64,000 nucleotides of DNA from Schmidtea polychroa (taxonomy: Eukaryota). The position numbers and the translations under genes were made by a program. Positions 9,074 to 63,357 of the stretch are shown here, in pieces. Positions within the stretch are counted from its first letter, which is position 1, and every line of letters starts with the position of its first letter. The DNA is taken from the NCBI GenBank assembly GCA_044892525.1, contig CM097885.1:29948001-30012000 (forward strand), read 5' to 3'. The notes below the pieces were generated by a model, which saw only the letters and a list, made by a program, of their open reading frames with translations, did no database searches and was not told the DNA's origin.

Positions 9074-10105
9074 GATTTGGTAATCACTGTCATTGAGGAG
9101 CCTACAGATTTCACAAGAGACTTAGACGCTGTAGAGCTGTCAAATCCAATAGAACTCACAACTATCGAGCAACCATGTAGAAGCATGGAAAATAATGAGA
9201 CCGCAATCTCTACAGTAAACAACAAAAATATAGAAATTGACGGAACAAGTCGGGGAATAATAATAAACCCCATTGCACCTGTACTCAAAGAAAATATATC
9301 AAATAACGAAACAAGAAGGCAATCAAGACAAGATAAAAATATCAGATCCAAGAGTCAGAAGAAAAAAAGACAAATAAATGACTCCGATAGCCATAGATAC
9401 CACAAAACAAAACAAAAAAATACGTACCGGTGGAGGACCATCAACGGCAAATACTCTAAAAATTCATCAAAAACCAAACATGAAGATCAACTGTGATCTG
9501 AAAATTCAGTTTATATGCAACAAAAAAGTACACCTATTCTACAGATATTAATGCTGCTAAACAGTATGAAGAGTCGCATCCACCTGTTGAGAGGCAGATG
9601 GTGGAATGTGAACAATGCAACACAACCATCACACTCAAAGAGGCAATAGAGCACATAAAAGTACATAAAGAGAATAGAGCCAGAGAAAGAAGCGAACAGC
9701 AGCCCGCCGCCAAGCCAACAAAGGAAGACATCCCTACGGAGATCAGCTGACTATCACAGACAGCAATCGAATATTACATGGATTTTCTATCAGGTAATAA
9801 AGCTACTACCCAGATCATTAAACTTGAGAAAAATCATTCCATACATAAGAAGATCACCAATCAATACTGAAATTCCGATACCTTCCGGGAACATCATCCC
9901 TATAACACCGGAATCTCAACCAATCGAAACAAACAGAAAGAGAAGAAAGGCCGTCTCAACGAGTGATGAAGAACAAAATCTACCAAAAAAGACAAATATT
10001 CATAAAGATCAATCCCTATTCGATCAAGCGGAAAAACTGATTGAAGGAGGACCTAGTCAGGCTATTACAAATGATGATGAAAATTTCCAGATTCACATTA
10101 CAAAT
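9074..10105 (+). mobile_element. Two stacked fragments of NeSL-clade ORF1 (lineage A1, then a diverged A2-like piece)
   Basis: RTGGGP, C2H2-like CEQC..EHIKVH and IS*LSQTAIEYYMDFL; ~9822-10105 is a diverged copy of ~10871-11145. Confidence 0.75.
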
Positions 10106-13100
10106 ATTTTATATTCCAAATCGACTACAATTGCAAATGAAAAAATCCTTGGAAAATCAGAGAACAATTTCCAGATGAGTAGCAGTGCGGGGTCCTCCGT
10201 GGAAACTCGTTCTCCTGCGGAGAACATTCAGAATGTTGACATGGACTCAACCCAACAACCAAATGAAAATGATGATGGATTCGAATATACCAGGAAACAA
10301 AAAAGGGCTATGAGATCATACTATGCCAAAACGCTCAAGACCAATATTGATAACATCGAAATACCTGAAATATCATCAAAAGCAAAGTCAGCAAAAAATT
10401 TCGTAAATAAAATCAACAAAAAACTAGATTCAAAAGAGAAATGGCAAAGAGACCCTTACTAACAAAAAAACGCTTATGAAAACCTGACAAAAACTGAAAT
10501 ATCTCAGAATGATTTCTCGAACATTCGAAGAGTTTTCATGGTTAATAATCTATTTGAGTATGAATCTGAACAGGATCATGCAATTGCAGCAGCCCTCTCA
10601 CAAAGTATTCTGCGAAAATCATCAGAAAACTTGAAGAACATCAACTGGAAAAATATAAGCAATTATTTCACGGTGCTGGATACATGGCTCAAAAAACTTA
10701 AACATAACCCAAGGATACCAGAATTAAGAAAGGAAGATGGAAATCTTCTAGATCTCATTGAAGGAACTCTAAAAACTTACCAATTCAAAACTCCATCGGA
10801 TCAACACAATGCCATAACGTTTTTCAACTTTCTGGTTAGGAGAACTATCGTTGGAGTACCAAGAACACTAAACCTAAGAAAAATAATACCATATATAAGA
10901 AAATCAACCAACACTGAAATCCAGACTTGCTCTGAGAATATCAACTCTACAACACCGAACTCAATACCTGTAGATTCAAACAGAAAGAGAAGAAAAGCAA
11001 TCTCAACAAGTGATGAAGAGCAAAATCTTCCAAAAAAGACTAATAAAGAGCAATCTATATTCGACCAACCGGAAAAATTGATTGGAGGAGGTCCAAATGA
11101 CACCATCACCAATGATGATGAGAACTTCCAGATCCATATTACAAATGAACTAACCTACAAATGTGTTCTGATTGGATTCCAATCCAAATCTGAATCACTA
11201 GCCGGGATTAAACAGCATGTATCAAGAACCCATAAAATCAAGACAACACATGCTAAATGCCATCAATGCCCAAACAATATTCAACAGCATGAAATTGACG
11301 AACATGTCAAATATCATAGAGAATTGACAAATAAATATAAAGATGCCTAAATGGATGTCATAATTCCAACAAAAAATGACATTCCTTCAAACATCGCATG
11401 ACTATCACAGTCAGCTATCGAGGCTCAAATAAGATCCATGATAAAAAAGCCCAATAACAAAGATAGCATAATTTGTTACCTAAATCCCCAATGTGCTAAT
11501 GAACTAATATCAAACAACAGGACTGGCCTCTTTAAAAAGTTAAAAATGGATGCCCTTGTTGGATGGGAGCTTACTATTTGGCTAATCCATTGGAATAAAA
11601 ATCATTGGACTGTATACCTTGCAGAAAGGAAAAACAAAACATCAGTGATTATGGACCCTGACAATCAAATGTCTCAAGAACTTAAAATTTCCATCAAAAA
11701 GAAAATGGATGATATACTGAGAATAACTTCCTCCGATCAAGACAATGAAATGCAATTAATGAACAAAAATCTAAAACCACAGAGAAAACATAAATAGAAA
11801 GGTTACACAATTACCAAATGCTCCTACCAGATACAGAGAATATTCATGGTGGCACCTGGTAGGGCAGTCAAAGAGATAGACAAAATCCTGGCACCAGCTA
11901 CTGATCTTACAACAGCAGTAATGGACCAATACTTCGAAAGATCCACCCCTTCTAAAATGAGAGAAAAACCAGCACCCATTAAAAGTGCTCCAGAATGGGA
12001 AACAAATAAACCAATAACCAGGGCAGACATCGATGAAGCAATAAGAAACAGCAAAGATGCTGCACCTGGTATGGACCAAATCCCACTTCGACAATGGAGG
12101 GAGTGGATGGCATTTGATCCACTAACACCAATCTTCAACAAAATCCTGGAGACGCATCAAATTCCCGAAGTATGGAGAAAATATTCAACAAAACTAATAA
12201 TAAAGCCAGGGAAAGGTAACCAACCGGAGAACCCATCAAATTGGAGACCTATAGCCGTTATGCCAACAAGCTATAGGATCTTCATGAAAGTATTAAATCA
12301 AAGAGTATTGAAATGGGTACACCAAAACAAGTTAATCTCCGGTTGGCAGAAAGCTGTAAACAGAGCGAATGGCTGCGATGAACATAGCTATATCATACAA
12401 GTTCAGAGGGAAAAATGCAATAGAGCCAGATACAAAAACCAGCAGTGCCACCTGGTATTCCTCGACCTTGCAGATGCTTTCGGAAGCGTCCCTTATGAAG
12501 TAATTTGGCACACACTGCAAAAGATGGGTATGAACAAAAGCACCATCCATCTGCTGCAGGAGTGCTATAGGGACTGCTTCACCATTTACGAAAGTGGAAC
12601 TACAAAATCTAGCGAAATAAAGCAGACCAAAGGAGTAAAGCAGGGATGCCCCCTGTCTATGACTCTTTTCAGTCTGTGTATAGAATACCTTATACAAACA
12701 GCGATAGACTGCCACAGAGGTGTAAACATAGCGGGGGAAAACATCAGCATCCTTGCTTATGCTGATGACCTAGTGTTAATGGCTCCTCAACACCACCAAA
12801 TGCAAGAAATGTTAAACATAGTAGTTGAGAAAGCCAAATTAGCTGGGCTCGCATTCAAGCCTGAAAAATGTGGCTACTACAGAAACAAAAATGATGACTT
12901 GGGATGGCAAAACATCATCACCATAAACGGCCAGAATATCAGACACATAAATGAAGATAACCTATACACTTACCTGGGAGTAAGGGTTGGGCAAAAAAAG
13001 AAGTGCGACTTGGGCGAAGTCTTCAAAGAGGTCGAGTCAAAAGCCACCAACATATTCAACTCCCTCCTAAGAGCCCACCAGAAGATCGAGGCCTACAACA

Positions 13101-14645
13101 CGTTTTGCCATTCCAAGTTCATATTCCCATTACAAGCAGAGGAAATATCGAAAACCCATTCAGACAAATTCGATGATACAATAAGAAAAATGATAAAAGA
13201 CAAGAACGTCCTTGATCTGCCAAATAAAAGCCCTCTTATGGACGCTGTCATCTATTCGCCAAAAGAGAGGGGAGGGCTTGGAATCACAAAAGTTAGTGAC
13301 GAATATCTAATCCAAGCCCTCAACAGATTCATAAAACTCATGAACAGCGGCCACCTCCCCATTGTCAAAATCTTGAGAGAAGAGCTAATATATGTCGCAC
13401 AAACAAGAACAGAAGTGGATATCCAGAACATCAGAGATGCCTGCAAGTGGTTGGAAGGAAGCTACGAGCACAAAAGTCAGAAAAATGCAAAGAAGTCGTG
13501 GCTGGACAAAACAAGAGAATCAATTAAAGCCCTAAAGACAACCCAGGGAATCGAGATAACATTCATTTATAAAGTAGACTCCGTGGGTTGCTCAATAAAA
13601 TGTAGCACAGACAATAAGCCAGATTGGATCCTACCTCCAAACTTAGATGATATATCAAAAACCCTCCACTGGATGATAAAGGACGCATATTTCAAAATAT
13701 GGTTGGCTGTAAAATGCCAAGGTTATATTATAAGTCTTCCGACATCCGACGAAATGGAATGGAAAATGCCCCGGGTCCTTAAAGACCCAGAATGGAAATT
13801 CATTATAAAGGTCCGGGCAAACATGCTGGATGTCGGAATGAAGCAGTCCAACCAAGGAGGTAGGATCGCTCCAACCAATTGCAGGCATTGTGATTGCCCA
13901 CAGGAATCAGCATCACATGTGATAAACATGTGCAGAAAGGGTAATAGGTCAAAGACGGCCAAACATAACGAAATAAAAAAAGGCCCTAGTAGAAATATTA
14001 AAGATCAAGAACATGAACTTCGAAGTAGAGACAATTCCAACAGAAGCGAAAGAGACCCTAAAACCAGATGTGGTAGTCCGCACCAACAAACAGATATTCA
14101 TAATAGACATCAAGTGCCCCTTCGACAGCACGGAAACCATAGAATTGGCAAGGACGGCAAATATGAACAAATATAGACAGCTGGCAATGGACATAAATGA
14201 GCAGACTGCAATACATACCACCGTCGAAACCTTCATAGTCTGCTCCTTAGGCACATGGGTCAAGGACAACAACTCCATATTCAGGAAGCTTGGGATTAAA
14301 TATACAGACTACAAACAGACCAAAGAAAGAATGATTGAGAAAGTTATCAGAGGGTCAAGGAAAACATACGAGCTACACAGAGGGTACCACACATGAGCAC
14401 AAGAGCCAGGACCAGGATGATTGCACCAGCATCTATAAAAGGGTGCACTTGATGTCTATTTCTAGTCATGAAAGAACCTCCAACAGTTTGCCCATGCCTG
14501 TTTGATGTACTTAAATGTGCACTTGTTTAACATTTTTAATAAAATAAATTTTGCCCACCCAGAAAGTTTAACCATGCCTGTGTGTTACACATTAATTGTA
14601 TACAAGATTGTTATTACAAGATTGCTTGTTTTTATTAATAAATTT
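10106..14645 (+). mobile_element. Near-full-length degenerate NeSL-clade RLE non-LTR retrotransposon (A2)
   Basis: ORF1 from about 10174 (frameshift and stop) with C2H2 fingers, Ulp1-like IHWNKNHWTVYL..MDPD, RT, CCHC, PD..D nuclease, then a 3' UTR with AATAAA. Ends approximate. Confidence 0.9.
11846..14396 (+). pseudogene. RT, CCHC and restriction-like endonuclease; frameshift near 13980
   Basis: APGMDQI, NWRPIA, FLDLADAFGSV, GVKQGCPLS, LAYADDL, GGLG, CRHC..HVINMC, KHN; second frame gives LKPDVV..IIDIKCPFD. Confidence 0.95.
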
Positions 14646-15312
14646 TTGACTCTGACACCTCATGCTGGTGTTCCTCATATGGGAAAAGTTTGCTGACTTA
14701 TCTAATATTTTTTAATTTTTAATTGAGCTTAATTCTGAATTTATTTCTTTTTGTAATTTTTCTATTGGTTTAAAAATATTTTAAATTGATTTTAAATTTT
14801 TTAAATGATTTTTATTATTACTTTTAAAATTTCTTGGATTATTTTTATTATTTTTTGTATTTTTAATATTTAAATTTAAATCATGGGTATTTCCTTGAAA
14901 GTTTTTAAATTTTCTTGGATATTTATTTGAAAATTTAATTTCATGTTTAAATTTTTATTGTTTTCTTGAAATATTTTATTATTCTTTGAAATTAATTTTT
15001 CTTGTATTTTCAATAATAAAATTCATGTTTTTATCCAAATTTAACATTATTTCCAAGCTTTTTTCTTGATAAATAAATTTGTCTTGGATATTTTCTTGAA
15101 GATTTGACATATTGTGTATCACTTTTATTATTTCCATCTGTAATTTTCAAATTGAAGTTTTGTTTTTGGTATTTTTTATCTGGGAAAGGTTTAAAAAAAT
15201 ATCGAAAATATTAAAACAATACCATTTAATATTTATAATTTTATTGAAAATTTAGATCAAGATGATATTAAAAAAACTAGAATGTAAAAATTATATTTAT
15301 AGAAAATTTATC

Positions 15313-17198
15313 TAAAAATTTATATAAGAATTTTGATAAAAAATAAATGATTAAACTACAAATGCTTAAAAATTATATATAACATTAAAAATATATCTAA
15401 GCATTTAAACTTTAAAGAAATATATATTAAAATATAATTTTAAAGATAAAAAATCTTTAAATTTAAAAGATATATGTTACCAAAGAATATTGAACTATCA
15501 ACAGAAAATAATAAAAACTCTGAATGATAATTGAATAATAATTTTTAAAATGTTACTTATTCAATTAAAAACAAAAAACGAATCCAGATAATATTCAGGA
15601 AAGCAATAACAATGCCAAAAAACCAAGATCCAATAATGAAAAACGCAGCAACTCTGCCCAAAAAAATGAAATCAAAAATTCAGAGACTCCCATAAAACCA
15701 TTAAACTTTGACAATAATGTCAAATCTAATGATATAAATATATTTCTATTCCATGAAAATACCAGATTATCAAAAACATATAGAAATAGAATATTATAAG
15801 AAGAAATTTGTAAAAATCTGTCAAAAATGATAAAAAATAGTGAATGTTCTAAAAACGATAAATTTGTCGTTTAAATTATCGTTTTAATTGCAGTTTTAAT
15901 TTTTAATGTTTTGAGTATGATTTAATTATTTCAAGATTCATTAATAATAAAAATCAAGATTTAATTAATTTTTGAAATATTAAATTTATCACAGAAAATA
16001 TCTCAAAGTTAGAGGATATGGGTCTTTTATTAGAAATAAAATATATAAATATCTATTGAATAAAATAAGCATTTTTAGAAATAAAAATGTAAACAATTTT
16101 AAAAATTCAATATTTATTTAAAATTTGGAAGTTCAAATATTGAATTAAAATAATTTTTTTTTGGCAGAATGGGTTTATTTAATTATAGTAGAATTATTTT
16201 TATTTTTTTAAAGTTAAAAATGTAAGTGTGTATAATATTATTGAAATAAATAAAAAAAATATCAAAAGAAAATTTAAATGATAAAAATTAATTTTTTATT
16301 AAAAATAATTAAAAATATACAAAAAACAAATCAAATTTAAAAATATCAATAAAAATATTTAGAAATAAAAGTTAAAACAATTTTTAAAATTTAATATTTT
16401 TTTTTAAAAATGGAAGGTCAAATATCCAATTTAAAAATATTTTAATCCAAATTTAAAAAAAACATTTAATTATAATAAAAATATTGAAATTTTAGATCAA
16501 GTTGATATTAAAAAATTAGAATGTTACAATTATATTTATGAAAAATATATCTAAAATATCAAACTTTAAAGAAAATTATATCAGAATATGATTTTAAAGA
16601 TAAAAAATACATTAAAATTTCAAAAATATTTTAACAAAAAATATTGAAGTACCAACAGATTTATAATAACTCTAACAGTTATATAAATAATTTTTTTAAT
16701 TTAGTTTAACTAATTCAATGAAAAAGAATTTTCAAACAATGAAAAATTGGAAATTCAGAACAATTCAGAACCTCGTCCAAATGAAATTGGAAAAAGCCCT
16801 AAATAACTTTCCACCAGCATCCAAGATGAAAAACAACGATAACAAAATGCCAATTAATAGTAAAAAAAATAATTAACAGTTTAATCAATAACTTATATAT
16901 AATTAAAAATAAATAAAAAAATTAAATCATTAAATTATATTATATTTCTGATTATTCTTGAATGAAGAGTTTGAACTTTTTGAATTCTATGATTGTTGAG
17001 TTCTCAGTTTCTGGTTGTTTAGTAGTTGAAATCTCTCTGGCTTTGGCCGCCAATGCGTTCATATGTTCTTTTGAAATTTTGTTTTCGGTATTTCTTATCT
17101 GGGAAAGGTTGGCAGAGGTTTTTATTATTTTCTTTATGTTCTTTGGGGTTTTATATAAAATATATTTATCATTTATTTGTTCTTTGATAAAATTTTAT
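15313..17198. repeat. AT-rich block repeat, variant unit
   Basis: Near-identical to ~21215-23105; its right half is shared with the 2.2-kb unit. Confidence 0.85.
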
Positions 17199-20100
17199 GG
17201 TTTGGTAACCACTATCTTTGAGGAGACTACAGATGTCACAAGAGACTCAGACACTGTAGAGCTGTCAAATCCAATAGAACTCACAACTATCGAGCAACCA
17301 TGTAGAAGCATGGAAAATAATGAGACCGCAATCTCTACAGTAAATAACAAAAACATAGAAATGAACGTAACAAGTCGGGGAATAATAATAAAACCCATTG
17401 CACCTGTACTCAAAGAAAATATATCAAATAACGAAACAAGAAGGCAATCAAGACAAGATAAAAATATCAGATCCAAGAGTCAGAAGAAAGAAAGACAACA
17501 AAATGACCTCGATAGCCATAGATACGACAAAACAAAACAAAAAACTACGTACCGGTGGAGGACCATCAACGGCAAATACTCAAAAAATTCATCAAAAACC
17601 AAACATGAAGATCAACTGTGATCTGAAAATTCAGTGTATATGCAACAAAAAGTACACCTATTCTACAGATATTAAGGCTGCTAAACAGTATGAAGAGTCG
17701 CATCCACCTGTTGAGAGGCTGATGGTGGAATGTGATCAATGCAACACAACCATCACACTCAAAGAGGCAATAGAGCACATAAAAGTACATAAAGAGAATA
17801 GAGCCAGAGAAAGAAGCGAACAGCAGCCCGCCGCCAAGCCAACAAAGGAAGACATCCTTACGGAGATCAGTTGACTATCACAGACAGCAATCGAATATTA
17901 CATAGATTTTCTATCAGGTAATAAAGCTACACCAAACACCGTGGCCTATATTAAACCAACATGTGCCACGGAAAAGTTAGTGACGAATATCTAATCCAAG
18001 CCCTTAACAGATTCCTAAAACTCATGAACAGCGGCCACCTCCCCACTATCAAAGAAACTCCAACAGAAATTGTACAAGAAATTATAGAAAAAAATCATAC
18101 TACAAAAAAGATTATTACTGAAGATAATACTGCAACAATATACGGTATCTTTAAGGAGCCAAAGATCGATAAAAACACAAAATTAACGAAAAGAGATAGA
18201 ACCAAATCATCTAATGAGGAACAATCTAGTAGTAAAAGGAGACAAACACAATCTCCATCAACTCCAAGAAACAAATTAAAAATAAAAGGAGGAGGAGCAC
18301 CAATTGACCCAAATATACCAGCACCAGAATTCGACTTTACTCTAAATAACGAGTATAATGTTGAATGTAACCGTTGTAAAGAAAAAGATGTATATAAGTC
18401 CAAAAATTATGATGATGCCTGGAAACAAAAAAAACATCAAAAACATCAATTAAAAAATAAATCCCTTCCAATAGTCAAATGTGTAGAATGCGAAAAACCA
18501 TTCAAAGGAAATGAGTGCGAAAACCATGTAAAAATCCACACAGACCGTGATATAAAAAACAACCAAATTGGATCAACAACAGTAGACCACAATGCCATTC
18601 CATCGCAGAACAGCTGACTATCACTGGCTGCAATGGAAACTTACATCAGAATTCTCCTGGAACAAAACCAATCAATGAATAAAACCATCAAATACATAGA
18701 ACCAAGACTGGCAAACCTGCTTATCAATCGAAACTTGAGAACATTTCATAATGAAATCAAGATAGACTCCCTGATTGGATGGGAACTAATAGTCTGGCCT
18801 AGTCACTGGAACAACTGACTTTGGATTGTCTACCTTGCTAATTACGAGGATAAAACCTCTATTATCTTGGACTCAGACAATCAGATGACAACATTGCAAA
18901 AGTGTTATATAAAAGACAGACTAGATAAATTCCTGGAAAATACAGTGGAAGAAAGAACTATCTTTAAATTACTTGAAAACAGATTAATTCCTCAACAATC
19001 AAATGACTATGATTGTGGAACATACATCCTACAATTCATAGAGGACTTTATAAAAGATCCTGAACGACAAAATTGTCAGACTCCAAACTCAATTAAAATT
19101 AGGAACATAATCGGAAAACAGATTATGGAAGAATTAAAAGATGCCAAAATGAATACACCAAGGAAGTCAAATAAAGAAATAGATGATTTACTCCTCAAAT
19201 TGAAGCTACTACAGATAGACATCGATTCTGTACTTCAATGGTTCACGAACAAATATAATGAAACAATCCCTAAGCAAAAGAACAAAAGAGGTGGAAAGAT
19301 CAACATCTCCAAATGTTCGTACCAAATTCAGAGGTTATTTGCTATAGCTCCAAAAAGAGCAGTAAAAGAAATATATAAAAACGAGTCAGCTCCAGCAGAC
19401 CTTCCTAAAAACATCTTAGATGTTTACTTCATAAAGGAAATTCCAGATATCCAGGAATGTAGCTGTTGTGGTTGGCGTAGTCCTTTCTGGTAATTTGGCA
19501 ATAGTTGCACCACTTTTCAATTGATCATCTATTTTGTCTATTTCAATTAATATTTTACCTTGTTCAACTTCAGATTTTAAGTTACAGGTTTCCAAAAGAT
19601 CTGATTTGTTCTTGAATAAATTAGACATTGCATTGAAGAAATTTTGTTCGATTTTCTCTAAAACATTTCCAATATAATTCATTATAGAATCGGAATCCGT
19701 GAGTGACGTAAAATTTCTTCCATCGAATTCGACTTTAATTTTTTTACATAATTTATCTACTATAATTCGGCAATTATGACCATTTATTAATAATGCAGCA
19801 AAATGCAAGTTATCATTTCCAAAGTTCTCTACATTGAGATATTTTAGAGAATCCATGCATTCGAATGAATCTTTGGGATAACAATAAGAATTTTTAGCTA
19901 GCGAAAAACAACCCAATTGAGGTTTTTGCATATCGTTTATTTTACTCATAAAAATATTCTGATGAATAAGTCAAATTGCAGGTAAAGATATTTTTAATTT
20001 AAATTACAAAGTTTTTAATTTGAATTACAAAAATTTACAGATCTGAGTAAAACAAAAATATATAATAGAAACTACATAAAAAATGTAAATATAATCAGAC

Positions 20101-21207
20101 CAGATAAACATATTCAACAGCCATTTCTCATTTACAAAATGTTAACTAAAAATAATAATTTCATATAGTCCGATTATTTCTAAAGATTTTACAGCCTGCC
20201 GATTTGTCCATGAACCAATTTGACCATTGTCATTCGCATACAATATTTGAGGAAATGTATATCCTTTGCCGTTCTGATCCTTTTTTGCATTATCACATTG
20301 ATCAGAATTTGTAAAGACGTGTGGTGGTTTGATAAAAAGATCTATTCGGGTTCATATTATTGTTAGGATTTGTTCCGTATTTCGCGAATTGTACTGGATG
20401 AGGGTGTTGGTCTATGAGAGCCAACACTAAAACTATTGGGAGCCGAATACAGTTTATCTTGATAATGATAACATGGCATCGAATTTGCTTTACTCGCCTG
20501 AGATTGATTAATAGCGCCTGATTGATAAGTAGAAGTATTAGCTGATCGCACGAATTTTGATTGACTGTAATTGTGTTCTGCTTGGTCCTTATTCGCTGGT
20601 GACCGCCCATTTATATATATAATATAATATAATATAATATAATATAGTATAATAGGTATATAGATATTGTTAGGGCCGTGTAACGGCTCACTACAGTAGC
20701 ATAACCTATAATCATTACCAGGATTGGATAACTAAGCCAGAAATCAGCATGAAAGAAATAGAAATGGCCCTGAAAAGAATAAACGATTCGGCCCCAGGAG
20801 AGGATAACATCCCTATCAGACAGTGGAAGAAATGGATGGATAGTGGAGTACTCCTAGATATATTCAATTATATAAAGAGGACACATATAATCCCAAAAAT
20901 ATGGAAAGACTTTGGAACAGTACTATTAATCAAACCGGGAAAAGAAAATGAGAGCAATAACCCCGCCAATTGGAGACCGATCGCAATTTTACCTACGAGC
21001 TACCGCTTATTCATGAAGATCATCAATATGAGAATATTGAAATGGGCACATGATGGGAAATTGATTTCGGATTGGCAGAAGGCAGTGGATAAGGCGAATG
21101 GCTGTGATGAGCACAATTACATCATCCAGGCACTGATTGAGAAATCCAACAGAATTAAATACAAACACGAACAATGTCACCTGGCTTTCTTGGACTTGGC
21201 TGATGCA
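17199..21207 (+). mobile_element. Chimeric, 3'-truncated NeSL-clade element (A1-like piece, short A2-like piece, lineage B2 ZnF-Ulp1-RT)
   Basis: Fingers CNRC.. and CVEC..HVKIH; Ulp1 PQQSNDYDCGTYI; RT APGEDNI, NWRPIA, FLDLADA then truncated; interrupted at 19464-20695. Confidence 0.9.
19464..20695 (-). mobile_element. 1232-bp insertion with TG...CA ends and 5-bp TSD (solo-LTR-like)
   Basis: GTAGC at 19459-19463 and 20696-20700. Removing it restores the frame IQECSITYNHYQDWITKPEISMKEI. Confidence 0.85.
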
Positions 21208-21214
21208 TTAAAAC

Positions 21215-28300: not shown

Positions 28301-28708
28301 AAAGGAGTCAGGTTAATAGGTACAGAAATTAGGCACGATTCATATTTAGAATGCTACAATAACAACGTAGTATTTTCTGTGCCACAAAGTAGGATAGGGA
28401 CGCGGAACCATCAATTGTACACATTTAAAAACAATAAAATCGCGTTGTCAAACAACGATGACAAGCGGTTTTGGGTGGGGAAAAATTCCAGTCTCGCATT
28501 TGGTCATTATTTAGCACTATATGACATAAATGATGATCAAATATTTGAAGAAGTTGGGCCACTATTCGGAGGATTAAGTCCAGATTTTGTTTCTGATGAT
28601 GAGGAAGTGGGTCCACTTTTCAATGGTTTAAGTCCAGATTTCGATTCTGTTGATGATCCTAATGATGATGATGAAATAGATATAGATGATATTTTATTGT
28701 CAGACTAA
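25323..28708 (+). pseudogene. polB: Protein-primed PolB pseudogene
   Basis: Consecutive ORF pieces with IYADFES, RDHCH, VVFHNLRGYD, YIDINNLYG, YKLFNNSLYGKS, AGDTDS, KAKGV; several stops and frameshifts. Confidence 0.93.
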
Positions 28709-29196: not shown

Positions 29197-29335
<139 letters not shown>

Positions 29336-41578: not shown

Positions 41579-41592
41579 TTAATGTTTATAAA

Positions 41593-47000: not shown

Positions 47001-49840
47001 TTATTTACTGCTACTACTTGCACCTGATACGTGGCACTGCATCTTATCAGCAAGTTCTTCGTATTTCGGGCAATAGGAGCTTATGGCGATCCGCAAGCAT
47101 GATTCCAAATGATCATCTGTCAAACAAGATCGATGTTTTGTTTTAATGACATTCATTGAAGAAAAGGCTGATTCACAAAGATAGGTGGATCCAAAAAATG
47201 CGGACATATATCCAACTACTCTCCGCAAAATTGGATATTTTTCTTCTGAAATAAGATTCCAAAAATTATCTTCGGTTGTAGCTCTTGATTTTAAGTAAAT
47301 GTCGCTTTTCAACGCTATTATCTCATCTTCTAAGCAAGCTGAATCTGAATCCAGAAATTCATTAATCTGAGTAGCGATCTCCTCTGTATCAATAACATCA
47401 TTAAACGGGAATGACATGAACATAGCAATATTTGCAATTTTAGATAAATCTGCGAAACGTGTGTTAAATTCATTTAAAAGGGTAGTAATTTGATTTGTAT
47501 ATTTATCGTAAAGAATTCCTGGCGCATTTTTGGATTCTTCTTCCATGTTTTTAAAATGTTTCAAATCACCCCGTTCTAGTTGACGCACAAACAAGGACAG
47601 TTTCTCTTTAAACGTCTTTACTGCCGTTATCATGTCAAGAATTGATTTGTGTCTCCCCTGAAGCTGTAAATTTAATTTATTCAGGTGCTCTGTAAAGCAA
47701 GATTTATCAGCCAACTTTTATCCTCCAGTTCGGGATATAATTCTTCTCTTCCAGTCAAAAACTGTTTTATTCCGGGCAAAAGATCTCTAAATCGTTTTAA
47801 AAATGCTGCACGGCTAAGCCATCTTACATCCGTGTGTAACAATAATTCAGTATTTTCAATTTCACATTGTTCAAGCAAAGTTCGAAATTGACGTCGTTGT
47901 AGACTTCTTGCACGTATCGAATTTAGTATTTTAAACGCAATATTCATTACATAGTTAGAGTTCAACACTTTGGAGCATAAGGTTTGCTGGTGGATAATGC
48001 AATGATACGAATGAAAACTGGGAATTTCTTCATCATTTTTGCAAAGTGTTACAAATCCGACATGTTTTCCGATCATAGACGGAGCTCCATCCGTGGTAAT
48101 TGATACCAACTTGTGAATCGGGAAATGGGTGCGACTTATAAAAGACTTGAATAAATTGTAAATATCTTGACCCCTTGTTTGTCCTTTCATTGGAAGAATA
48201 GTCTGTATTCTTCTCTGGTTGACATATCATCAAAAACCATTCGAATGAAGATGCATAGTTGCGCAGTATCAGTGAAATCTGTAGATTCATCAAATATCTT
48301 GCCGCAAAATATCTTCCAAGTTTTTGCTAATGTCCACCATTCTTTGCGTGCTAGTATTGCGCGTCAATGACATATTGTTGATACAATCCATTATTTCGGA
48401 TTTATTTTTAAAATCTTTGAATAACACCTCACCAGCTTCAACAAACGCCTGTTTCCATATTTCGCCATCTCCAAAAGGTTTTTTATGTTTCATCAAAATA
48501 TTAACTACCTTGAATGATGCTAGGGTAGCTGTTTTTGATTTTGAGTTAAATTTCGTAAAAAAAGTTTGTTGTGCGCCTAATTGAGACTTTAACTGCTTGA
48601 CTTTGTCTTTTCGTACCTCGGAATGTAATGGAATGTCAATTTCATACTGTTTGTGCACTGTTCGAAAATGTCGTTCAACGTTAGCTCTTTTAGGTAGTGC
48701 TACGTTTGAATTACAAATGAGATAAACACACTTATCTTTCATCATTATGAAAAAAAATTCCTGTTCCCATTCAGTATTATAATGGTACGTTTTAGTTTTT
48801 TTGGCCGGTTGTGTCATTGGGGCTAAAACAAGAAAATAATAAAATCTTACATCCGTGTGTAACAATAATTCAGTATTTTCAATTTCACATTGTTCAAGCA
48901 AAGTTCGAAATTGACGTCGTTGTAGACTTCTTGCACGTATCGAATTTAGTATTTTAAACGCAATATTCATTACATAGTTAGAGTTCAACACTTTGGAGCA
49001 TAAGGTTTGCTGGTGGATAATGCAATGATACGAATGAAAACTGGGAATTTCTTCATCATTTTTGCAAAGTGTTACAAATCCGACATGTTTTCCGATCATA
49101 GACGGAGCTCCATCCGTGGTAATTGATACCAACTTGTGAATCGGGAAATGGGTGCGACTTATAAAAGACTTGAATAAATTGTAAATATCTTGACCCCTTG
49201 TTTGTCCTTTCATTGGAAGAATAGTCTGTATTCTTCTCTGGTTGACATATCATCAAAAACCATTCGAATGAAGATGCATAGTTGCGCAGTATCAGTGAAA
49301 TCTGTAGATTCATCAAATATCTTGCCGCAAAATATCTTCCAAGTTTTTGCTAATGTCCACCATTCTTTGCGTGCTAGTATTGCGCGTCAATGACATATTG
49401 TTGATACAATCCATTATTTCGGATTTATTTTTAAAATCTTTGAATAACACCTCACCAGCTTCAACAAACGCCTGTTTCCATATTTCGCCATCTCCAAAAG
49501 GTTTTTTATGTTTCATCAAAATATTAACTACCTTGAATGATGCTAGGGTAGCTGTTTTTGATTTTGAGTTAAATTTCGTAAAAAAAGTTTGTTGTGCGCC
49601 TAATTGAGACTTTAACTGCTTGACTTTGTCTTTTCGTACCTCGGAATGTAATGGAATGTCAATTTCATACTGTTTGTGCACTGTTCGAAAATGTCGTTCA
49701 ACGTTAGCTCTTTTAGGTAGTGCTACGTTTGAATTACAAATGAGATAAACACACTTATCTTTCATCATTATGAAAAAAAATTCCTGTTCCCATTCAGTAT
49801 TATAATGGTACGTTTTAGTTTTTTTGGCCGGTTGTGTCAT
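47001..49840 (-). pseudogene. hAT transposase, frameshifted and internally duplicated
   Basis: BED-like LIC..RHFRTVH, DESTD, TTDGAPSM, HCIIHQ, VRWLS, STYLCESAFS. Confidence 0.93.
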
Positions 49841-49866
49841 TGGGGCTAAAACAAGAAAATAATAAA
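47821..49866. repeat. 1023-bp direct tandem duplication inside the hAT element
   Basis: 47821-48843 matches 48844-49866; identical ORFs are offset by 1023. Confidence 0.95.
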
Positions 49867-51556
49867 AGCTTAAATAAATTAAATATGAAAATTAATGTTA
49901 AACACACTTACATACTCAAAAATTAAAAATGTTAACTTTATAAAGAATTTTTTTTAATAAAAAAATTTTGAAATTAATATTATAAGCAGGTATTATTCAA
50001 TACTGAATACTTCAAGCTTTCAAATTTTTCTAACGAAAACAATTTGATTTCAAAATTGAAATAGACAAACACACGTTTGTTGTATTTTATTTTGGTTGTT
50101 TTTTATTTTTTTATTCCTTATCGAAGATTGTAGCGTCAATGTTTTGCTTTTATTTTATGGCCTACTTGTTCAAACACATGAAATTTATTCTGATTATTAG
50201 CTAACTGTATATATTTGAATTTCAAACTCAAAATTTACTACACTCTGAGTGTTATCTGACTAATATTATGTTTCTTATTGGAATTTTTTTGTCATATGAA
50301 TCGAAACTTATTTTAAATATGTTTATAAAGTTAGAAATTCAATAAATAAAAAACTGATTTTTATATGCAATTTTCCATAGTGCAAGCGGGCTACTTTCGA
50401 TAGCTACGCGGTCGACGCTTTTGCCAGCCCTGATATAGATCGATAAAAATCGTAGTGATTAGTATTTTAAATTTATTTAATTTTTTAATTTTTAATTATT
50501 TTTTTTGATTTATTTATCATATTTATTTTTATTAATTAAAATTTTTTATTTTTATTAATAAATTTAATTATTAATTTATAGTTATATTTGTTTATAATAC
50601 ATGTTTTTTTATATTATTAATCATTATTAATTTAAATTTTATTAATTCTTTATTTAATAAAGTTATTTTAATTATATTATTTTATTATTAATATTCACTG
50701 AAATAAATTAATGCTTTAAATATGCTATTCTTATTATAAATGCAATAATATATAGATCGATAAAAATAGTATTATATTATTATAAATTTATTTAATTTTT
50801 GTTATTTTTATTTAGTTATTATTTATGATTTTTTTAAATTTATCATATAATTTTATTAATTATTTTTTTAATTTTTATTATCGTTATTATTATTATTTAG
50901 TACCCCTAAATATGCACAAAATTAAACTGATAATTAATTTAAAAAGTAACAAGAATGATTTTTTATAAATTTAATTAAACATTTTTTAATTATTAATTTT
51001 TTATTATTTTATTAATTTTTTTGGTAATTTTCTTACATTATCCTAATCTAATCAACACGTGCGTTTATTTGCTCGATATATGTAAATAAATAAAATTTAC
51101 GAGATTTGCATCGGCGAACAGATTTATTGTACAAATGAATTTCAATTTATCGACATTAAGGAGAATTTCTAATAATTACTGAAATAATTTATATGCTTAC
51201 AAATGCATTGGGATCTGGCATTTTAGTACTGCACGTTCATAGGCTCGTTACCAAGTCCAAACCTGTCTGCTTTGTTGTTGAAAGGGTTAACAATCTTATA
51301 TTCTCCTCACTCCTTTCCACGACCCATAGCAACCAATGGAACATGACAAATCAGGCAGCGGTTGTTAGCAAATCAATATTATTATAATTTATAAGGCAAA
51401 GTAATAAATAATAATTAAATTAAATTAATGATTATAATAATAATAATAATAAAAATTAATAATAAATAATCAATAAAAAATAAATGCATAAATAATCAAT
51501 AAATAATAATCATTTAATAAATAATAATAATAATAATAATAAATAAATAATAAATT

Positions 51557-51588
<32 letters not shown>

Positions 51589-56787: not shown

Positions 56788-58230
56788 CATTGGGAAATTG
56801 CAAGTTTACAGATTACAGGTTATTTTCTAGAGCTTATGAGAAATTGTAAATAAAATAAATTTTTGTCTTCTTATTGGTTGAATTTTATCAAATTTTGGAT
56901 TATTATTATTGATTATTATTATTTATTATTGTTATTGATTATTAATTATTGATTATTATTATTTATTATTGTTATTGATTATTATTTTTGATATAATTAT
57001 TTGTATTTATTGTTACAATATTTGGATTTGATATTTTCATGACTGCCGTTAGAAGGTGTTATGTATTAACGTTCAATTAAAAAAAAAAAATCAAATTTTA
57101 TTTCAATAAATTGGCGGGCCACTTGGCCAAAAAGGGGAGAACTTCTCACCCTTGGAGTTCTGCAGCTTTTAATCTTTCAACTGCTATTGCCGGAATTGAA
57201 ACTCCCGCAATTGTACGTGGTTACAGACGGGATAAGCGGAGTTGATCGGATTGGTAGTATTGTCGAAGTCTGAGTTAGCGTTGACAATTGAGTTAACCGT
57301 CTCGATCAATTGATTTAGGGCATCATGAGTGAGGTTCTGATTGAAGAGATTAGGTTGCAGATGATGATTTTATCAGAAGTATAATTTTCGGAGATTTCTG
57401 GACAAGATTGGTAGTATTGACGAGTTTTTTCGGTCCGCCAATTGAGAGGAATACCGGATCGTACAGGATAATATCTGAAATAAATAAATGTCGGGGCAGG
57501 AAGGCTCCCTTGCAAAATCTATATAGCGCTTATTATAATACTTATTATATTATATATTGTAAGGAGTTGGTGAAGGTTGGGACAAGTATAGATAGTAGTA
57601 TTAGTTGGTAGTATTAGTGATTATAGTAGTGATAGTATAATAAAGATCATTATAGTATTGATAAGAACAACTAAAAAGACCACCAAATAGGCAGAACCCC
57701 TACAAGGATTCCTACATAAACCCATTTGGTGATTGGCACACGCAGTACATTATTAATAGATAATAATAGATATAATAATAGATATAATAATAATTATAAT
57801 AATAATAATAATGTAATATCAATAATAATAATAATGTGATATTAATAAAAATAATACAAATAATAATAATAATATTATATTAAATACATTAAGAATAATA
57901 ATATTGCAACATTAGGAATATATGGTCAGAGAGAGTTTAGATTTTAATTTTTAAGGTTATTAGTAATTGAGTATTTTAGTTATTTATTGGATTTATTTAC
58001 TGGAAGATATTTATATATTTGATTAATAATAGTTAATAATATAGATAATAGCCATAATACACAAATAGAATAGGATAATGCTCTGAGTACATATTATATA
58101 TCAATATCTGGGTTTCAAGATTGGTTTAACAAGAGACAAAGAAAATTGTAGAAGGGTGATATATAATAACCATAGAATACAAATAAATAAAAGATGCTTT
58201 GGCTACAAAAAGATAAATATATAAGTATAA

Positions 58231-61179
58231 TTAATTTTTATAAATATGTTGACGATATATTTGGTAGCTGCTATTGATTGCAGCTACACAAGCTTTTTTG
58301 GCTAGCTCCTTTATTTCATTATTGGATAGGCCAATAATTTTAAGTATCGAGTCATTATTATATTTGTCCCATGAACCAAGGGTGCCAACTACCAGCGCAT
58401 GTAGAGTGTGTGGGCATTTATGGAGTCTACCTATTTCCTCTCCTAGTTCCTTATATTTATTATAGTTATTTCTCCTAGAGTTGTCGTAGTTTTCTCTGGA
58501 GTCGAAAGGAACCTTAATGTCTAAGATATGGATAGATTTGTTACGCTTAGATTTTAGAAGAAGATCGGGCTTAAGGGTGGAATTGGTACCTTCAGGTATT
58601 TTCTCTATGTCTACTTCATAGTTAATAGATATAAGGAAGTTTGCCACAGTTTCTAGGACATTATCATGCTTATTTCGTCTTGCATTAATACGTGCTTGGC
58701 AATGATTGAAGATGTGTGCAGGTGTTTCTGGGTGGGCATGGCAGTGCCGGCAGAGTATAGATTTATTAGTCTTTAGGCGGTGTGGTGAGTAGTTCAGTTT
58801 TAGAAGGTTGTTGCGTGCGCGAATAAGAAAAAGGAATTAGGCATCAGGAAGGATGTCACTTTTAAAGAAATAGTCGGCGATGTTGCTTTCGCTAATTGCC
58901 TTTGCCATATAGCCCTAGCATTTCATCGCACACCAACGTTCAGCATGAATAAGGCCAATAATAGAGTGTAGTTCAGCTGAGGTTCTATCCACATTACCTA
59001 GGGAGAAGTAATTGATACGACTCTTATATTTTATTTCAAGCTGTAGAAGGTGCTCAAGCATTACAATGGATCTTTTAATACCCTGTTTTATTTGCAGGTC
59101 GAATCCATATTGTTGTATTTCAGAGTTACGAAGGATGTTGCGCGGAGAGTCAAGGATGTTGTGGTTAATGACACAATTTCTAAAAGTAAAGTTCAAGCGG
59201 GAGTGGATGAATACTTTAAAGGCATTAATTTTTTGCGAAGGATGTAGATGAGAGTTGAGAATTTTGTTTGTGTCTGTAATTGCGGAGTCTAGTCTTTCTT
59301 TGATACAGTGTTTAGTTTTATGGGAGAAGTCAACCCCAAGATATCTGTATATATTAGAATCATCAATTTTTGGAAGGGTTTCGCCATAGAGTAAAATAGG
59401 TTGGTAGTTGCAGTCGTGATCAACATGGAAGTATCCAGATTTCGAGGGTTTAAAGCGTAGGTTGACCTTTGTTGCAAGGGAGACAGTGAGAGATAGGGCC
59501 GACTTGATATTGGAGTAGGAATCGGATATAAGCACTATATCATCGGCATACGCAAGAATGCTAATGTTGTGATTATGAAAGAGAAACGGGTGAGTTTGTA
59601 AGACATTGCGGAGTATGAAGTCAATGGATAGACAGAACAGAGTCATGGACAAGGGGCAGCCTTGTTTCACACCTTTATAAATTGGTGTATAATCAGATTT
59701 TTCTCCCTCACATTCAAAGTAAGTTTGTACATTGTTGTACATGTCCTGAAGAAGAGCAATAGTGGTGTTGTGAAGACCCATCTCTGAGAGAGTGTGCCAG
59801 ATGAGTTCATGCGGAATAGATCCGAAGGCATCTGCTATATCTAGCCAAATGATATGTAGGTCATTTTTCTTGCGATAGGAAGAGTCTTTTATGAGATGGA
59901 GGATAAGATTGTGTTCAGCACATCCATCCGGTGCGCAGATAGCTTTTTGGTTAGGTGTTAGGAGATTTCCGTTACTGATCCATTCAAGAAGACGGTTATT
60001 CATTAGTGAGGCAAATATCCTATAGGCAGTGTTCATAATTGAGATCGGTCTCCAGGAGTTAGCCTCGTGGCTTATTTCAGCTTTACCAGATTTAAGAATG
60101 AGTCGGGTACGAAAGGATTTCCAGCATACTGGAGATCTGGAATTACGAAGGATGTTGTTACATAAGGCAAGGATGAGCTCAAAGTCAGGAGATATCTTTC
60201 TCCAATCGCTAAGAGATATTTTATCAGTACCAGGGGCAGTATTGTCAAGTTGGCAGAAGATGCTTTTAATGTCATCAGTGTCAAAGGGAGTGATGGTGAA
60301 GGATTCAGAGAGTGTTGGGTACTGATAGTTAAGGTCAAAGGTGCAATCAGAGGTTTTGCTAGCGAAGAGTTTTAGGATATTATCCATATTTGGTGTGTGA
60401 GTTTTCACTTCATTATTTAAAATTTTGGAGATTTCCTCTTTAGGGGCAAATTTATATTTTTGTCTCTTGGTAAAGACCAGTTCTTTACTAACCTTATAAT
60501 TTTTATGAATTATGTCCGATGCTTTCTTTGTGATGTATTTATGAGGATTAATGCTTCCATTAATTCTCTCAATCTCACTTAAAGCAGCATCGCACTCTAT
60601 TAGATTATTGTTAAGATTAATAATTAGACAATTGATAAATGGTCGGAATTTCCGCACATCATCAATTGGCAATTTGCAATAATTATAATTATTTATAGTA
60701 GTTTTAATATTATTTATCATATTGGGTATATTAGGACAAGTTAATTTTTCACGTTTAATAAGGCATTCGATAAAGTGACATATATAGAAGGCAGAGTCAG
60801 TAGGTATGAAGCAGCGAGGGTATTCAGGGTTTTGAAGTTCAATTTTGACAGGGCTAACAATTTTTTGGAGATCAAGAATGGTTTCGAGAATATTTTGAGC
60901 TAGAAAGAGGTGAGTAGAAAGGCTATCGTCAAGAAGCGGGTCAATGAGGACAGCAAGTCTACGGTGTTTGTCGAGTAGAAAAAAGAACGAGTTGTCCTTA
61001 CCATCAGACATGGGCATGATAATCTCATTCCATTGAGCAAATTCAGAGAATGGAAAGGTGGCAAAGAAAGTTACATAGTTATGCTGGATAAGTGCATTTC
61101 CTATGAAAGGGTCCACAAAGATAGAGGAGTTTTTCAAGGCATTTGAGAAGATGTATGCCTTGATTGCGTGTTGGGACCA
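58231..61179 (-). pseudogene. ORF2 of element C: degenerate Ulp1-like domain, RT, CCHC, RLE; one nonsense codon
   Basis: APGTDKI, WLDIADAFGSI, GVKQGCPLS, LAYADDI; TAG at 58915-58917 where A2 has Gln; then CRHC..HIFNHC and LKPDLL..LDIKVPFD. Confidence 0.93.
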
Positions 61180-63357
61180 TCATGCCGACTCTTTCTCAAC
61201 ATTATTACCGAAAATAAGGGTATCAGGAAGAGGTCGTTTGACAATTTCGCTTTCAGAGAAGGTAGCCTCAAATTCTTGCGACTCAAGTATAGGGCGTAAG
61301 TTGTTCACATTATCGGGGAAACTATCCAGTACTTGGGAGATCACAAGCGGAGTGGGGATATTGCCCGGATACACGTAAGGTTCAGGGTGGTTTTCGAGGA
61401 TATGTTGTCGGACAAGGTGATGAGAGATCCATGATCCACAAAAGCAGTATACCTCCTCGTCAGGATAAAAGATAAGTTTTTTATGCTTGACCTTTATATG
61501 GTTAATAATGGTCATAAGAGGGGTGTCAATGTCAAAGGTGGTTTTACATTTTTTACGATTTTTGCTATAGTTGAAACAGGTAAGGTTATTGGGGGGTGAT
61601 ATCCGTATTTCAGCGCGGCTCATATATTCAAGATCACATTGGTCTATGTGTTGAAAGTGGACAATGTGATTATAGATTTGTTTGAAGGTTATAGGATTTG
61701 GCGCATATTTATTCTCACCGGGGGCTCTACATTGAATGCAATCAATAAGTGTGTTTTCGTCAATTTTTAATCTATGAAAGTCCCACGCGTGTTTAAAGAT
61801 TTTTTTACGATTATGGACAGAAATAGGACTGCATAGGGTTGTCTTGCATTTCAATCTGCATTCAATTTTACCCCTACCATTAAGTTTGAAAAATATTTTG
61901 TTGTCTAGTTCACTCTCATCTGCAGTTTTTGGGATGAAGACATTGCGTGTGTGTTTGGCTAGCGTAATGGGTGTGAGGTAATTAGGAGATGGGACAGGGA
62001 TATTAGTCGCAAACACTTGTATTGTTTTATTTAATACTTCCATTTGTGATTGTATTCTTAATGCCTCTTGGATTTCGTTGCATTCAGATTCAGAAGGAGT
62101 AGGCGCGGTGATTTTTGGGGTGTTGATATGCTCAGTAATGTTGGTAGTATTAGGTTGAATAAATTCAGGCGTATTATGAAGAGAAGCTGTTGTCATTAGG
62201 TGTGGATCAGTGACGTTGTTAGAAGGAGATGACATTGTGGGTTGGAGAGGTGAGTCTTCGTCGTTAGAGGGTATACTGCTGCTCGATAGATTCACATCAT
62301 CTATGTCCGAGTTGAAAAGATCGGTATTTGGCTGGGGATTCGCAGAGGATTGTGGAGGGTTGTTAAGAGTTTGAGAATTAGTTTCATACATAGGAAGGGG
62401 GCCAATCGTGTCATCGAGGTCACAGCTGTAGTGTGAAGTGTCAATGGTGTATTCGGAGCAAGAGGTGGACGAGGAGTTATTAGAGTTTTCAGAATCATTG
62501 TCAGTAGAATCATTTAATGGAGAGCGTTTAATAAGAGGGAGGGCAATACTGGATTCATCAGTATTGATATTGGACAGAGATAGATGAGGTTTATGGGTTT
62601 TCACTTTCTTGTGGTTATTAATAAAAATATTTTCCAAATTATTAGTTTTATTTTTATAAATAGAATATAGGGTTGTGTATTTACCCTTTTGAAAGCTTTT
62701 TTTATCATTAAAAGATTTTATTACTTTATTATTATTAATATCATTAAGAGTTGGAGGAAGGTTTTTAACATCCTTGGGCTTATAGATGAAGTCATTGGGG
62801 ATAGGCTCAGAAAAATGACGTTTCAAGGAGGTTCCAAGGTTTTTATTAGACAGAGTTTGAGGTATAGTGTGAGCATTTGGAGAGTTAGCTAAGTAATTGG
62901 CCGTATTCATAGGAGTAAGAAAGGTATCAGTAGTTTGTGGATTTGGAGTTTGTTCTCCAACTAGATTGTCTAAGGTAGATGAAGAACTAACAAGATTTTC
63001 GCTGAAGGTGACAGTCTTTGAGGAGGCGAGTCGGCCGTAGGCCGGCGAGCTGCGTGTTTTCTCGTGTTCCGAAGGAACACGAGAAAAATTTTTTCTAGAA
63101 AGAGTGTGGTAAGAGAAATTGTGATATTTAAACAAGGAAATATTTTTGTTTAATATCGATAATTTATTTAATTCAATGAAATTAGATATATTAGATAAAA
63201 TAGTGTTAATTAATTCACCAGAAAATCCATTAGCATCAGGGACTTCTGGAGAATTTTCATAATAATTAGTAATAATTTTTTTAATTATATATTTAATTTT
63301 ACGTTTAAAAAATTTTTCATATTTACCATTTTGGTTATTAGTATAATTTGTTATCAT
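61180..63357 (-). CDS. ORF1 of element C: low-complexity region then C2H2-like fingers
   Basis: 725-aa ORF with CRLKC..HAWDFH, CIQC..HIVH, C..C..HIKVKH and CFCG..HILENH; ends at an in-frame TGA. Confidence 0.85.
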   Translation of the reverse strand: MITNYTNNQNGKYEKFFKRKIKYIIKKIITNYYENSPEVPDANGFSGELINTILSNISNFIELNKLSILNKNISLFKYHNFSYHTLSRKNFSRVPSEHEKTRSSPAYGRLASSKTVTFSENLVSSSSTLDNLVGEQTPNPQTTDTFLTPMNTANYLANSPNAHTIPQTLSNKNLGTSLKRHFSEPIPNDFIYKPKDVKNLPPTLNDINNNKVIKSFNDKKSFQKGKYTTLYSIYKNKTNNLENIFINNHKKVKTHKPHLSLSNINTDESSIALPLIKRSPLNDSTDNDSENSNNSSSTSCSEYTIDTSHYSCDLDDTIGPLPMYETNSQTLNNPPQSSANPQPNTDLFNSDIDDVNLSSSSIPSNDEDSPLQPTMSSPSNNVTDPHLMTTASLHNTPEFIQPNTTNITEHINTPKITAPTPSESECNEIQEALRIQSQMEVLNKTIQVFATNIPVPSPNYLTPITLAKHTRNVFIPKTADESELDNKIFFKLNGRGKIECRLKCKTTLCSPISVHNRKKIFKHAWDFHRLKIDENTLIDCIQCRAPGENKYAPNPITFKQIYNHIVHFQHIDQCDLEYMSRAEIRISPPNNLTCFNYSKNRKKCKTTFDIDTPLMTIINHIKVKHKKLIFYPDEEVYCFCGSWISHHLVRQHILENHPEPYVYPGNIPTPLVISQVLDSFPDNVNNLRPILESQEFEATFSESEIVKRPLPDTLIFGNNVEKESA

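Follow-up and report, generated by a model that had tools for sequence, protein, structure and literature searches.

The question raised by the 64,000 nucleotide (nt) stretch of the Schmidtea polychroa genome analysed here (contig CM097885.1, positions 29,948,001 to 30,012,000; in the following the window) is why diverged retrotransposons without long terminal repeats (non-LTR) share an in-frame TGA codon at one and the same position of a Ulp1-like protease domain. On re-reading, the five TGA codons and flanking peptides reported in an initial annotation were all found in the window sequence. Four of them, located in fragment A (9748), element B (11399), fragment C (17872) and element D (18615), read TGA CTA TCA, and the fifth, in element E on the minus strand (61182), reads TGA TGG TCC. 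Based on the comparative evidence, programmed, context-driven readthrough of the UGA, by which the reverse transcriptase (RT) protein of these elements would be made, appears to be the best explanation (estimated probability 0.85), as the annotation had proposed. The window (30% GC) is located at the end of a tandem array, with units of 12-20 kb packed with nested, decayed elements, and contains four lineages, every copy of which is damaged by extra stops, deletions or chimeric joins. Since all of these copies are damaged, the window by itself is weak evidence and the genome-wide count is decisive.

Relatives were searched for in the 781 Mb genome by six protein searches, each scoring at most 150 candidates, and 80 stretches were fetched; loci were chosen from the match lists for diversity, long frames and exceptions. 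Nineteen loci cut at the boundary of the ribosomal DNA (rDNA; L012-L030), six mis-anchored rows and the rows whose match missed the junction were excluded before the junction codons were counted. In one search with a protein query a TGA was located inside the match in 147 of the 150 matches scored out of 1,022 candidates. The codon was TGA in 93 of 104 distinct junction contexts of 213 nt, and the following 50 codons of the same contexts held 27 stops in 5,200 codons. In a subset of loci clustered at 80% identity the majority codon was TGA in 20 of the 23 clusters and TAC, CTA and TCA in one each. Each of 16 near-intact copies contains exactly one internal stop, always TGA and in no case the TGG which according to the annotation would have spoken against readthrough, with 1,061-1,470 open codons before and 1,078-1,252 after it. 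All 21 lineage representatives use TGA at the junction, compared with TAA in 12, TAG in two and TGA in two of 16 terminal stops (Fisher p 2e-8, the representatives being mutually related), and synonymous sites are saturated among them (identical Leu codons 0.22-0.24). As the 21 representatives had been picked for having a stop, this test speaks to which stop is used and not to its presence.

The remaining 11 contexts carry TAC (2), CTA (2), CGA (1), CGT (1), TCA (2), TGG (1), TAA (1) and TAG (1). TAC, CTA and CGA/CGT represent three lineages with a sense codon (Tyr, Leu and Arg, respectively) at the site, so that the claim of a TGA in every NeSL lineage does not hold, and the other five contexts are decayed copies of TGA families. 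In a 95% copy of the family of element E (G000:C3:89621047) the match spans the junction and shows no stop. Judged by these sequences, the UGA is a feature of the family of R5/LIN-type elements to which the copies are assigned below, and not decay.

The junction codon aligns to the Trp of the Ulp1 motif 'RWLNDTII', a register kept by the profile with X at the stop, and the column is W in 82 of the 92 aligned stretches of database relatives and never C, in line with the alignment given in the annotation. The database protein relatives begin at the first Met after the UGA. When the L065 region was modelled by AlphaFold with W in place of the stop, the prediction was confident on both sides of the codon (pLDDT 90.7), and residues 46-232 of the model match residues 431-621 of yeast Ulp1 (Z 18.9, root mean square deviation 2.9, 181 aligned). 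As the alignment used for folding included cellular Ulp1-like proteins the fold was to be expected, and the point is only that residues on the side of the first open reading frame (ORF1) belong to it: the structural match to Ulp1/SENP starts 15 residues before the stop. According to the model, the stop thus lies inside the predicted protease fold.

With a cut-off of E 0.1, PF02902 was detected in 11 of 15 members (best 2e-17), and between the two main clades the protease domains share no more than 15-20% identity. The clade targeted to the 28S rDNA retains the catalytic triad, while in a clade of 12 representatives that includes element E the stop is kept but the catalytic His and Cys are gone. 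This large and dispersed clade (L082, L083, L088, L133, L137 and window 61179-60700) keeps a conserved Ulp1-like domain, possibly a SUMO-binding pseudo-protease. Two Ulp1-like domains in tandem were also observed in some related RT elements or fragments (P0010, P0013, P0021).

The strongest evidence for a selected stop is provided, at the level of sequence comparison, by the exceptions. The intact 28S insertions L227 and L228 carry CGA-CTA (Arg) at the Trp site, and their single TGA (TGA-CAA-CCA) is located 169 codons upstream of it, before both zinc fingers. L230, which is about 80% alike downstream, has the identical 15 nt GAT TGA CAA CCA CAG around the relocated stop and CGT-TTA instead of CGA-CTA at the Trp site, the Leu codon having drifted after it had ceased to follow a stop. 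In L140 the Trp site is CTA (Leu) and a TGA-CGG is found 138 codons upstream; P0003, an independent protein of 94% identity, likewise starts after the TGA-CGG point. The Arg, Leu and Tyr lineages keep the catalytic residues intact. Insertion of Trp at the UGA, as assumed in the annotation, is thus not required.

Outside S. polychroa the same layout was found in all three full-length relatives among 70 metagenome loci, of which 66 had no match to the protease profile and one was a broken fragment. Two of these contigs have the stop at the Trp site (L153, TGA-CTT; L154, TGA-CTAG) and the third has Arg at this site and a TGA-CAA about 20 codons upstream (L155). Each contains one TGA and 15-17 TGG codons in frames of 1,164-1,883 codons ending with TAA or TAG, and in the RT tree the three are located on deep branches outside both S. 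polychroa clades. No relatives were detected among the viral contigs searched, the prokaryote genomes searched gave only one chance pattern match and a word-based protein search only one distant match. The relocated stops are all UGA-C (3/3; chance about 0.007). We consider it rather probable that this whole non-LTR clade, in S. polychroa as well as in other eukaryotes, employs programmed UGA readthrough, which would be the first LINE-like case, and that the stop is movable: where the UGA at the protease Trp was lost to a sense codon, a new in-frame UGA-C in a different known motif would have taken over upstream.

Module swapping appears to be frequent in these elements (L068/L141 versus L227, L070 versus L080, and L140), as shared ORF1 starts are combined with different second open reading frames (ORF2s) and near-identical RTs are paired with protease and zinc-finger regions diverged by 40%. 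An AUGA stop-start overlap seen in the Tyr lineage (L068/L141) was rejected as a start signal, since it is probably a deletion joint: the first zinc finger is missing and L139 and L104 differ.

With respect to the nucleotide context, the codon after the TGA is CTA in 43, TGG in 39, CTC in three and another codon in eight of the 93 contexts. At the lineage level CTA accounts for 7 of the 9 Leu codons after the TGA compared with 24% in ORF2 (p about 0.001), and in the TGG clade an A is the last base of 7 of the 8 Ala/Thr codons preceding the stop, compared with 27% (p about 0.001); both values treat related lineages as independent, which the synonymous saturation justifies only partly. The UGA-CUA context emphasised in the annotation is therefore over-represented, but the clade of 61182 uses UGA-UGG. 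Passages of PMC3159437 distinguish type II (UGA-CUA/CGG) and type I (CAR-YYA) readthrough motifs, mention UGA-UGG in one furovirus and a stimulation of readthrough by 5' adenines, and give a peak of synonymous conservation as usual at type II sites. The type II motif is present as CTA in 43 of the 93 contexts and as CGG in L140, and absent from the 39 contexts with UGA-UGG; the extended 3' stem-loop and the synonymous conservation that mark type II sites were not found in windows of 100 nt and 15 codons, respectively. Taken together, the signal is best explained by local context only, which is predicted to consist of UGA-CUN for the majority of lineages, of xxA-UGA-UGG for one clade and, for the stops relocated upstream, of UGA-CAA-CCA, UGA-CGG or UGA-CAA.

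Several observations weigh against programmed readthrough. UGA-UGG, which lacks the C at +4, makes up 39 of the 93 TGA contexts, and the CTN codons following the stop in 9 of 9 cases are by themselves not significant against a background of 77%. The two checks on 3' signals suggested in the annotation were negative: no 3' structure was shared among 20 representatives between +4 and +103 (mean folding z -0.5), and no peak of synonymous conservation was found after the stop (observed/expected 1.03 and 0.99, protease-dead clade only), both scans being local. A W occupies the site in two proteins from the databases (P0015, P0024), either by TGG or by the code used by the gene caller. The TGA-CGG of L140 represents one amplified array copy (67 matches, 99-100%) and could have arisen by decay of CGA. 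No relocated stop is visible in the Tyr lineage (L068, L141, L139, L104), although this is uninformative because all four loci are deleted upstream. Finally, passages of PMC2194720 report that in a yeast reporter the junction sequence of Candida Tca2 was not sufficient by itself for readthrough. As a separate observation, the only strong local hairpins at +4 to +103 after the TGA were found in L080 (z -6.1).

Among the rival explanations, non-AUG reinitiation after termination, or internal initiation, just after the stop, by which ORF2 would be made as a protein of its own in the way suggested for LINE-1 and SART1, survives best and nevertheless seems unlikely. Reinitiation is the described route for the ORF2s of non-LTR elements (passages of PMC5972666), R2 needs no Met start (passages of PMC13580325), and selection on the codons after the stop would be accounted for as well. 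However, this route requires neither the same frame, nor a gap of one codon, nor UGA in preference to UAA (21/21 versus 2/16), and it would remove the first 15 residues of the protease fold and, in most lineages, detach the zinc fingers from the RT. Reinitiation at an AUG is contradicted by the position of the first in-frame AUG after the stop, which varies between +6 and +476 and is not conserved. In L227 it lies beyond both zinc fingers and the whole protease. Furthermore, conservation of the AUG-free stretch that follows the stop is as strong as that of the RT. The proportions of nonsynonymous and synonymous differences (pN/pS) are 0.05-0.17/0.63-0.81 in the TGG clade (+1 to +54, including L083 and L094 with an AUG at +15), 0.18/0.75 in the AUG-free codons of L133 versus L135, and 0.13/0.56 over 345 codons of L227 versus L230, where the first AUG is at +359. 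That the up to 359 codons separating the stop from the first AUG evolve under purifying selection argues against AUG reinitiation, and the start of ORF2 at its own AUG, considered in the annotation as a possible refutation, is not supported.

Readthrough by near-cognate decoding has furthermore to be weighed against editing of UGA to UGI, which is read as Trp, by A-to-I conversion in some of the transcripts. Trp is the residue to which the stop aligns, a single edit yields UGG, and for L065, L061 and L145 folding predicts short hairpins that contain the stop. Taking into account that the relocated stops lie in a linker without a role for Trp and keep the C at +4 nonetheless, and that no conserved duplex around the stop was found in the folding and synonymous scans, editing appears very improbable. 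A 5' G is also a poor neighbour for ADAR. An 832-nt contig from a run presumed to be RNA, which may be DNA, is gapless over the 61182 junction, and the stop is unchanged as far as the 40 of 517 difference rows listed go; as contigs drop minority variants, this bears on neither expression nor editing.

Instead of near-cognate decoding, readthrough could depend on a host tRNA cognate to the codon, which would be tRNA-Sec or a suppressor of UGA. A tandem array of 316-bp units (G000:C3:73.02-73.07 Mb, C58, C657; L247-L266) comprises 2,207 tRNA-Gly-type genes genome-wide, 28 of which have the anticodon TCA, one base from tRNA-Gly(TCC), and an intact cloverleaf; SUP-TCA genes have been predicted in S. 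mediterranea (passages of PMC7962491). Among the loci read, which were centred on TCA copies, no variant other than TCA is common (27 versus at most two). The TCA copies, 28 of the 2,207 units, are candidate UGA-suppressor tRNA-Gly genes or a drifting variant. That an array-borne tRNA-Gly(UCA) decodes the UGA in this host is regarded as improbable, and so is replacement of near-cognate decoding by a cognate host tRNA in general; the same layout occurs in other organisms. Regarding tRNA-Sec, no Rfam match to a selenocysteine insertion sequence (SECIS) was obtained in the window or in 15 loci, and Cys does not occur at the site in the 92 stretches. Least probable is that the stop is due to decay, a spliced micro-intron or a genome-wide TGA=Trp code: although all window copies are damaged, decay is refuted by one stop per 2,100 and more codons at one site in 16 copies, as the annotation had anticipated, 7 of 22 representatives have no in-frame GT-AG intron of 24-90 nt spanning the stop and the others have none in common, and the code change, which had likewise been dismissed, is refuted by 12-21 TGG and no other TGA in the ORF2s, some of which terminate with TGA, and by 10 TGG and no TGA in a polymerase frame of about 1,430 codons in the window.

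What we infer concerning readthrough by ribosomes, its rate, the inserted residue and its purpose is the following. The elements would contain one reading frame of about 2,100-2,550 codons divided by a single leaky UGA. Most ribosomes would terminate there and produce an abundant Asn-rich, low-complexity ORF1 protein of 1,000-1,400 residues (12-19% Asn), perhaps a scaffold of the ribonucleoprotein or a condensate, like gag or L1 ORF1p. A small fraction would decode the UGA by a near-cognate tRNA and synthesise the full protein including zinc fingers, protease, RT and endonuclease, which would perform target-primed reverse transcription. Near-cognate residues at UGA are Trp, Cys or Arg. The purpose may be a high ratio of ORF1 to polymerase, as in gammaretroviral gag-pol, and little of the DNA-cutting enzyme. 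An abundant ORF1 product bearing zinc fingers, as envisaged in the annotation, is not a general feature, since the relocated stops precede the zinc fingers. Since the stop may lie before or after the zinc fingers, and Arg, Leu or Tyr are allowed at the Trp site, what is selected seems to be the ratio, and neither free zinc fingers nor a particular inserted residue.

The elements are assigned to the R5/LIN-type non-LTR retrotransposons of the NeSL clade, so that the label NeSL given in the annotation is retained for the clade and replaced by R5/LIN for the lineage. An RT (PF00078) followed by a CCHC knuckle and a restriction-like endonuclease (CCHC and PD..D-type motifs read by eye) is present, as are an Ulp1-like protease domain upstream of the RT and two to four C2H2 zinc fingers N-terminal to it (read by eye, Pfam support weak). 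The placement in the R5/LIN lineage is based on an architecture and a 28S target identical to those of LIN9_SM, which also point to a planarian host; the RT tree comprises unnamed relatives only. The LIN9_SM-type 28S 3' target motif was found in 7 of 11 sequences checked; the window lacks it and the clade of 61182 is dispersed. L061, L065, L068, L140, L141, L227 and L228 end at the antisense 28S site that S6 Fig of PMC4640811 shows for LIN9_SM, and ARAGORN detected no tRNA target in 14 loci. Insertion is antisense into the 28S rDNA, and ORF1 starts at an ATG within the antisense 28S target (MNAWPPQASYPC; L227:316-4104, L141, L068 from about 1010 onward), which suggests that the start codon of ORF1 may be borrowed from the target. 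Diverged copies of the ORF1-start peptide MNAWPPQASYPC recur inside ORF1 of L065, L068 and L139.

The R5/LIN elements, comprising R5 of Girardia and LIN9_SM and other LIN families of Schmidtea, have zinc fingers, RT and restriction-like endonuclease in common with the elements described here, and PMC4640811, which describes them, contains no mention of 'stop codon' or 'readthrough'. NeSL-1 and Utopia-1_TSP of nematodes likewise have an Ulp1-like cysteine protease N-terminal to the RT, whereas the catalytic His and Cys have been lost in the clade of 12 members; Utopia generally encodes one protein and targets SL1 or U2 genes, in contrast to the long ORF1 and single internal UGA found here (passages of PMC4640811). 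The type II sites of alphaviruses and furoviruses and the type I sites of tobamoviruses show the same local motifs before the polymerase domain (passages of PMC3159437). Unlike these viral sites, the elements revealed no 3' stem-loop or synonymous peak, and both motif classes as well as UGA-UGG occur within one clade in which the site moves.

An in-frame stop between an abundant N-terminal protein and protease/RT is also known from murine leukaemia virus (MuLV; UAG and pseudoknot) and Candida Tca2 (gag-UGA-pol). Both are LTR elements with capsids, while the stop of the present non-LTR elements is usually located inside the protease domain and no pseudoknot is predicted. R5 itself reportedly has two ORFs. 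LINE-1 and SART1 likewise have a bicistronic non-LTR RNA and a low level of RT protein, and employ termination-reinitiation over a spacer or overlapping stop and start codons, whereas neither a spacer nor a conserved AUG is present here; in its passages the review on reinitiation names only these two elements (PMC5972666). Readthrough is established for viruses and gammaretroviruses and has been proposed for Tca2 (passages of PMC2194720). No description for non-LTR elements was found in the literature searched, within which Repbase reports, subscription journals and the original R5 paper were out of reach, or in passages of PMC4640811, PMC5678591, PMC5972666, PMC13580325, PMC13517186, PMC5035012, PMC3956500, PMC5009743 and PMC7650587.

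In the window, the junction UGA of fragment A (AGC TGA CTA TCA, 9748..9750, plus strand, by sequence reading) belongs to a piece of about 9321-9791 that ends a few codons past the stop and shares 75% DNA identity with L080 over 480 nt. Fragment C (AGT TGA CTA TCA, 17872..17874, plus strand) is its duplicate, as stated in the annotation (7945-9806 versus 16034-17930, 93.6% identity). Element B on the plus strand (92% DNA identity to L070 over 11023-11765) comprises an ORF1 end with two zinc fingers of C2H2 type (11162-11239 and 11258-11317, read by eye), a decay TAA after them (11348-11350), the junction UGA (GCA TGA CTA TCA, 11399..11401) and an Ulp1/C48 protease (11402..11794; PF02902 E 0.005, below the cut-off) with an intact His motif (11588-11608) and a deleted C-terminal Cys part. 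It is followed by RT, CCHC knuckle and restriction-like endonuclease (11798..14396, plus strand; PF00078 E 6e-33), a frameshifted ORF2 ending with TGA, with the RT at about 12224-12979, YADD at 12758-12769 and the knuckle at 13880-13933. This ORF2 comes from a related but different family than the junction (67% to L070).

Element D on the plus strand contains two zinc fingers at the end of ORF1 (18366..18539), the junction UGA (AGC TGA CTA TCA, 18615..18617), an Ulp1/C48 protease (18618..19493; PF02902 E 3e-10, 91% DNA identity to L061) and an RT piece downstream (20698-21209). The Asp motif (18867-18878) and the QxNxYDCG motif (18993-19019) of the protease are present, and the His is lost at a second, decay TGA (18816-18818). 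Element E on the minus strand (about 57,100-63,800) is 89-91% identical to the near-intact L082 and has an internal deletion. The open 3' part of its ORF1 (61183..63363), without any Pfam family at E up to 0.1, consists of an Asn/Ser/Pro-rich low-complexity region and four zinc-finger-like motifs (61860-61774, 61740-61648, 61578-61483, 61446-61387). The junction UGA (GCA TGA TGG TCC, 61182..61180) is followed by ORF2 (58231..61179, terminal TAA; PF00078 E 9e-33), with a protease-like domain lacking the catalytic His and Cys, the RT at about 60063-59332, YADD at 59550-59539, a CCHC knuckle at 58752-58699 and then the endonuclease. This ORF2 is damaged by the internal deletion, which removes about 318 nt, and is interrupted by a TAG at 58917-58915.

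The window furthermore contains frames for a protein-primed-type DNA polymerase B (Pfam DNA_pol_B_2) at 455-4744 (minus strand), 25768-28708 (plus) and 42185-42778 (plus), which may be Maverick/Polinton-like; one of them is open for 1,429 codons and has an N-terminal zinc finger. Transposase-like frames with a Spin-doc zinc finger are located at 47001-49891 (minus strand) together with a 1,032-bp tandem duplication of 99.8% identity. Tandem repeats of 16 bp and an (ATA)45 tract were found at 4858-5001 and 29200-29333, and a satellite of about 99 bp at L141:1-1200, where it lies upstream of an rDNA fragment.

If true, readthrough of the UGA would represent a third route for the expression of a non-LTR RT, beside the reinitiation proposed for L1 and SART1. 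The compensatory relocations would be a rare natural experiment in which the stop itself is selected. Since such elements are truncated at the UGA by gene callers and in repeat libraries, site-specific members of this clade that are screened as genome-insertion tools would lack the zinc fingers when expressed or be dismissed as defective. The approximately 20 diverged junctions would moreover provide a set of naturally occurring contexts for readthrough, among them xxA-UGA-UGG, which has received little study.

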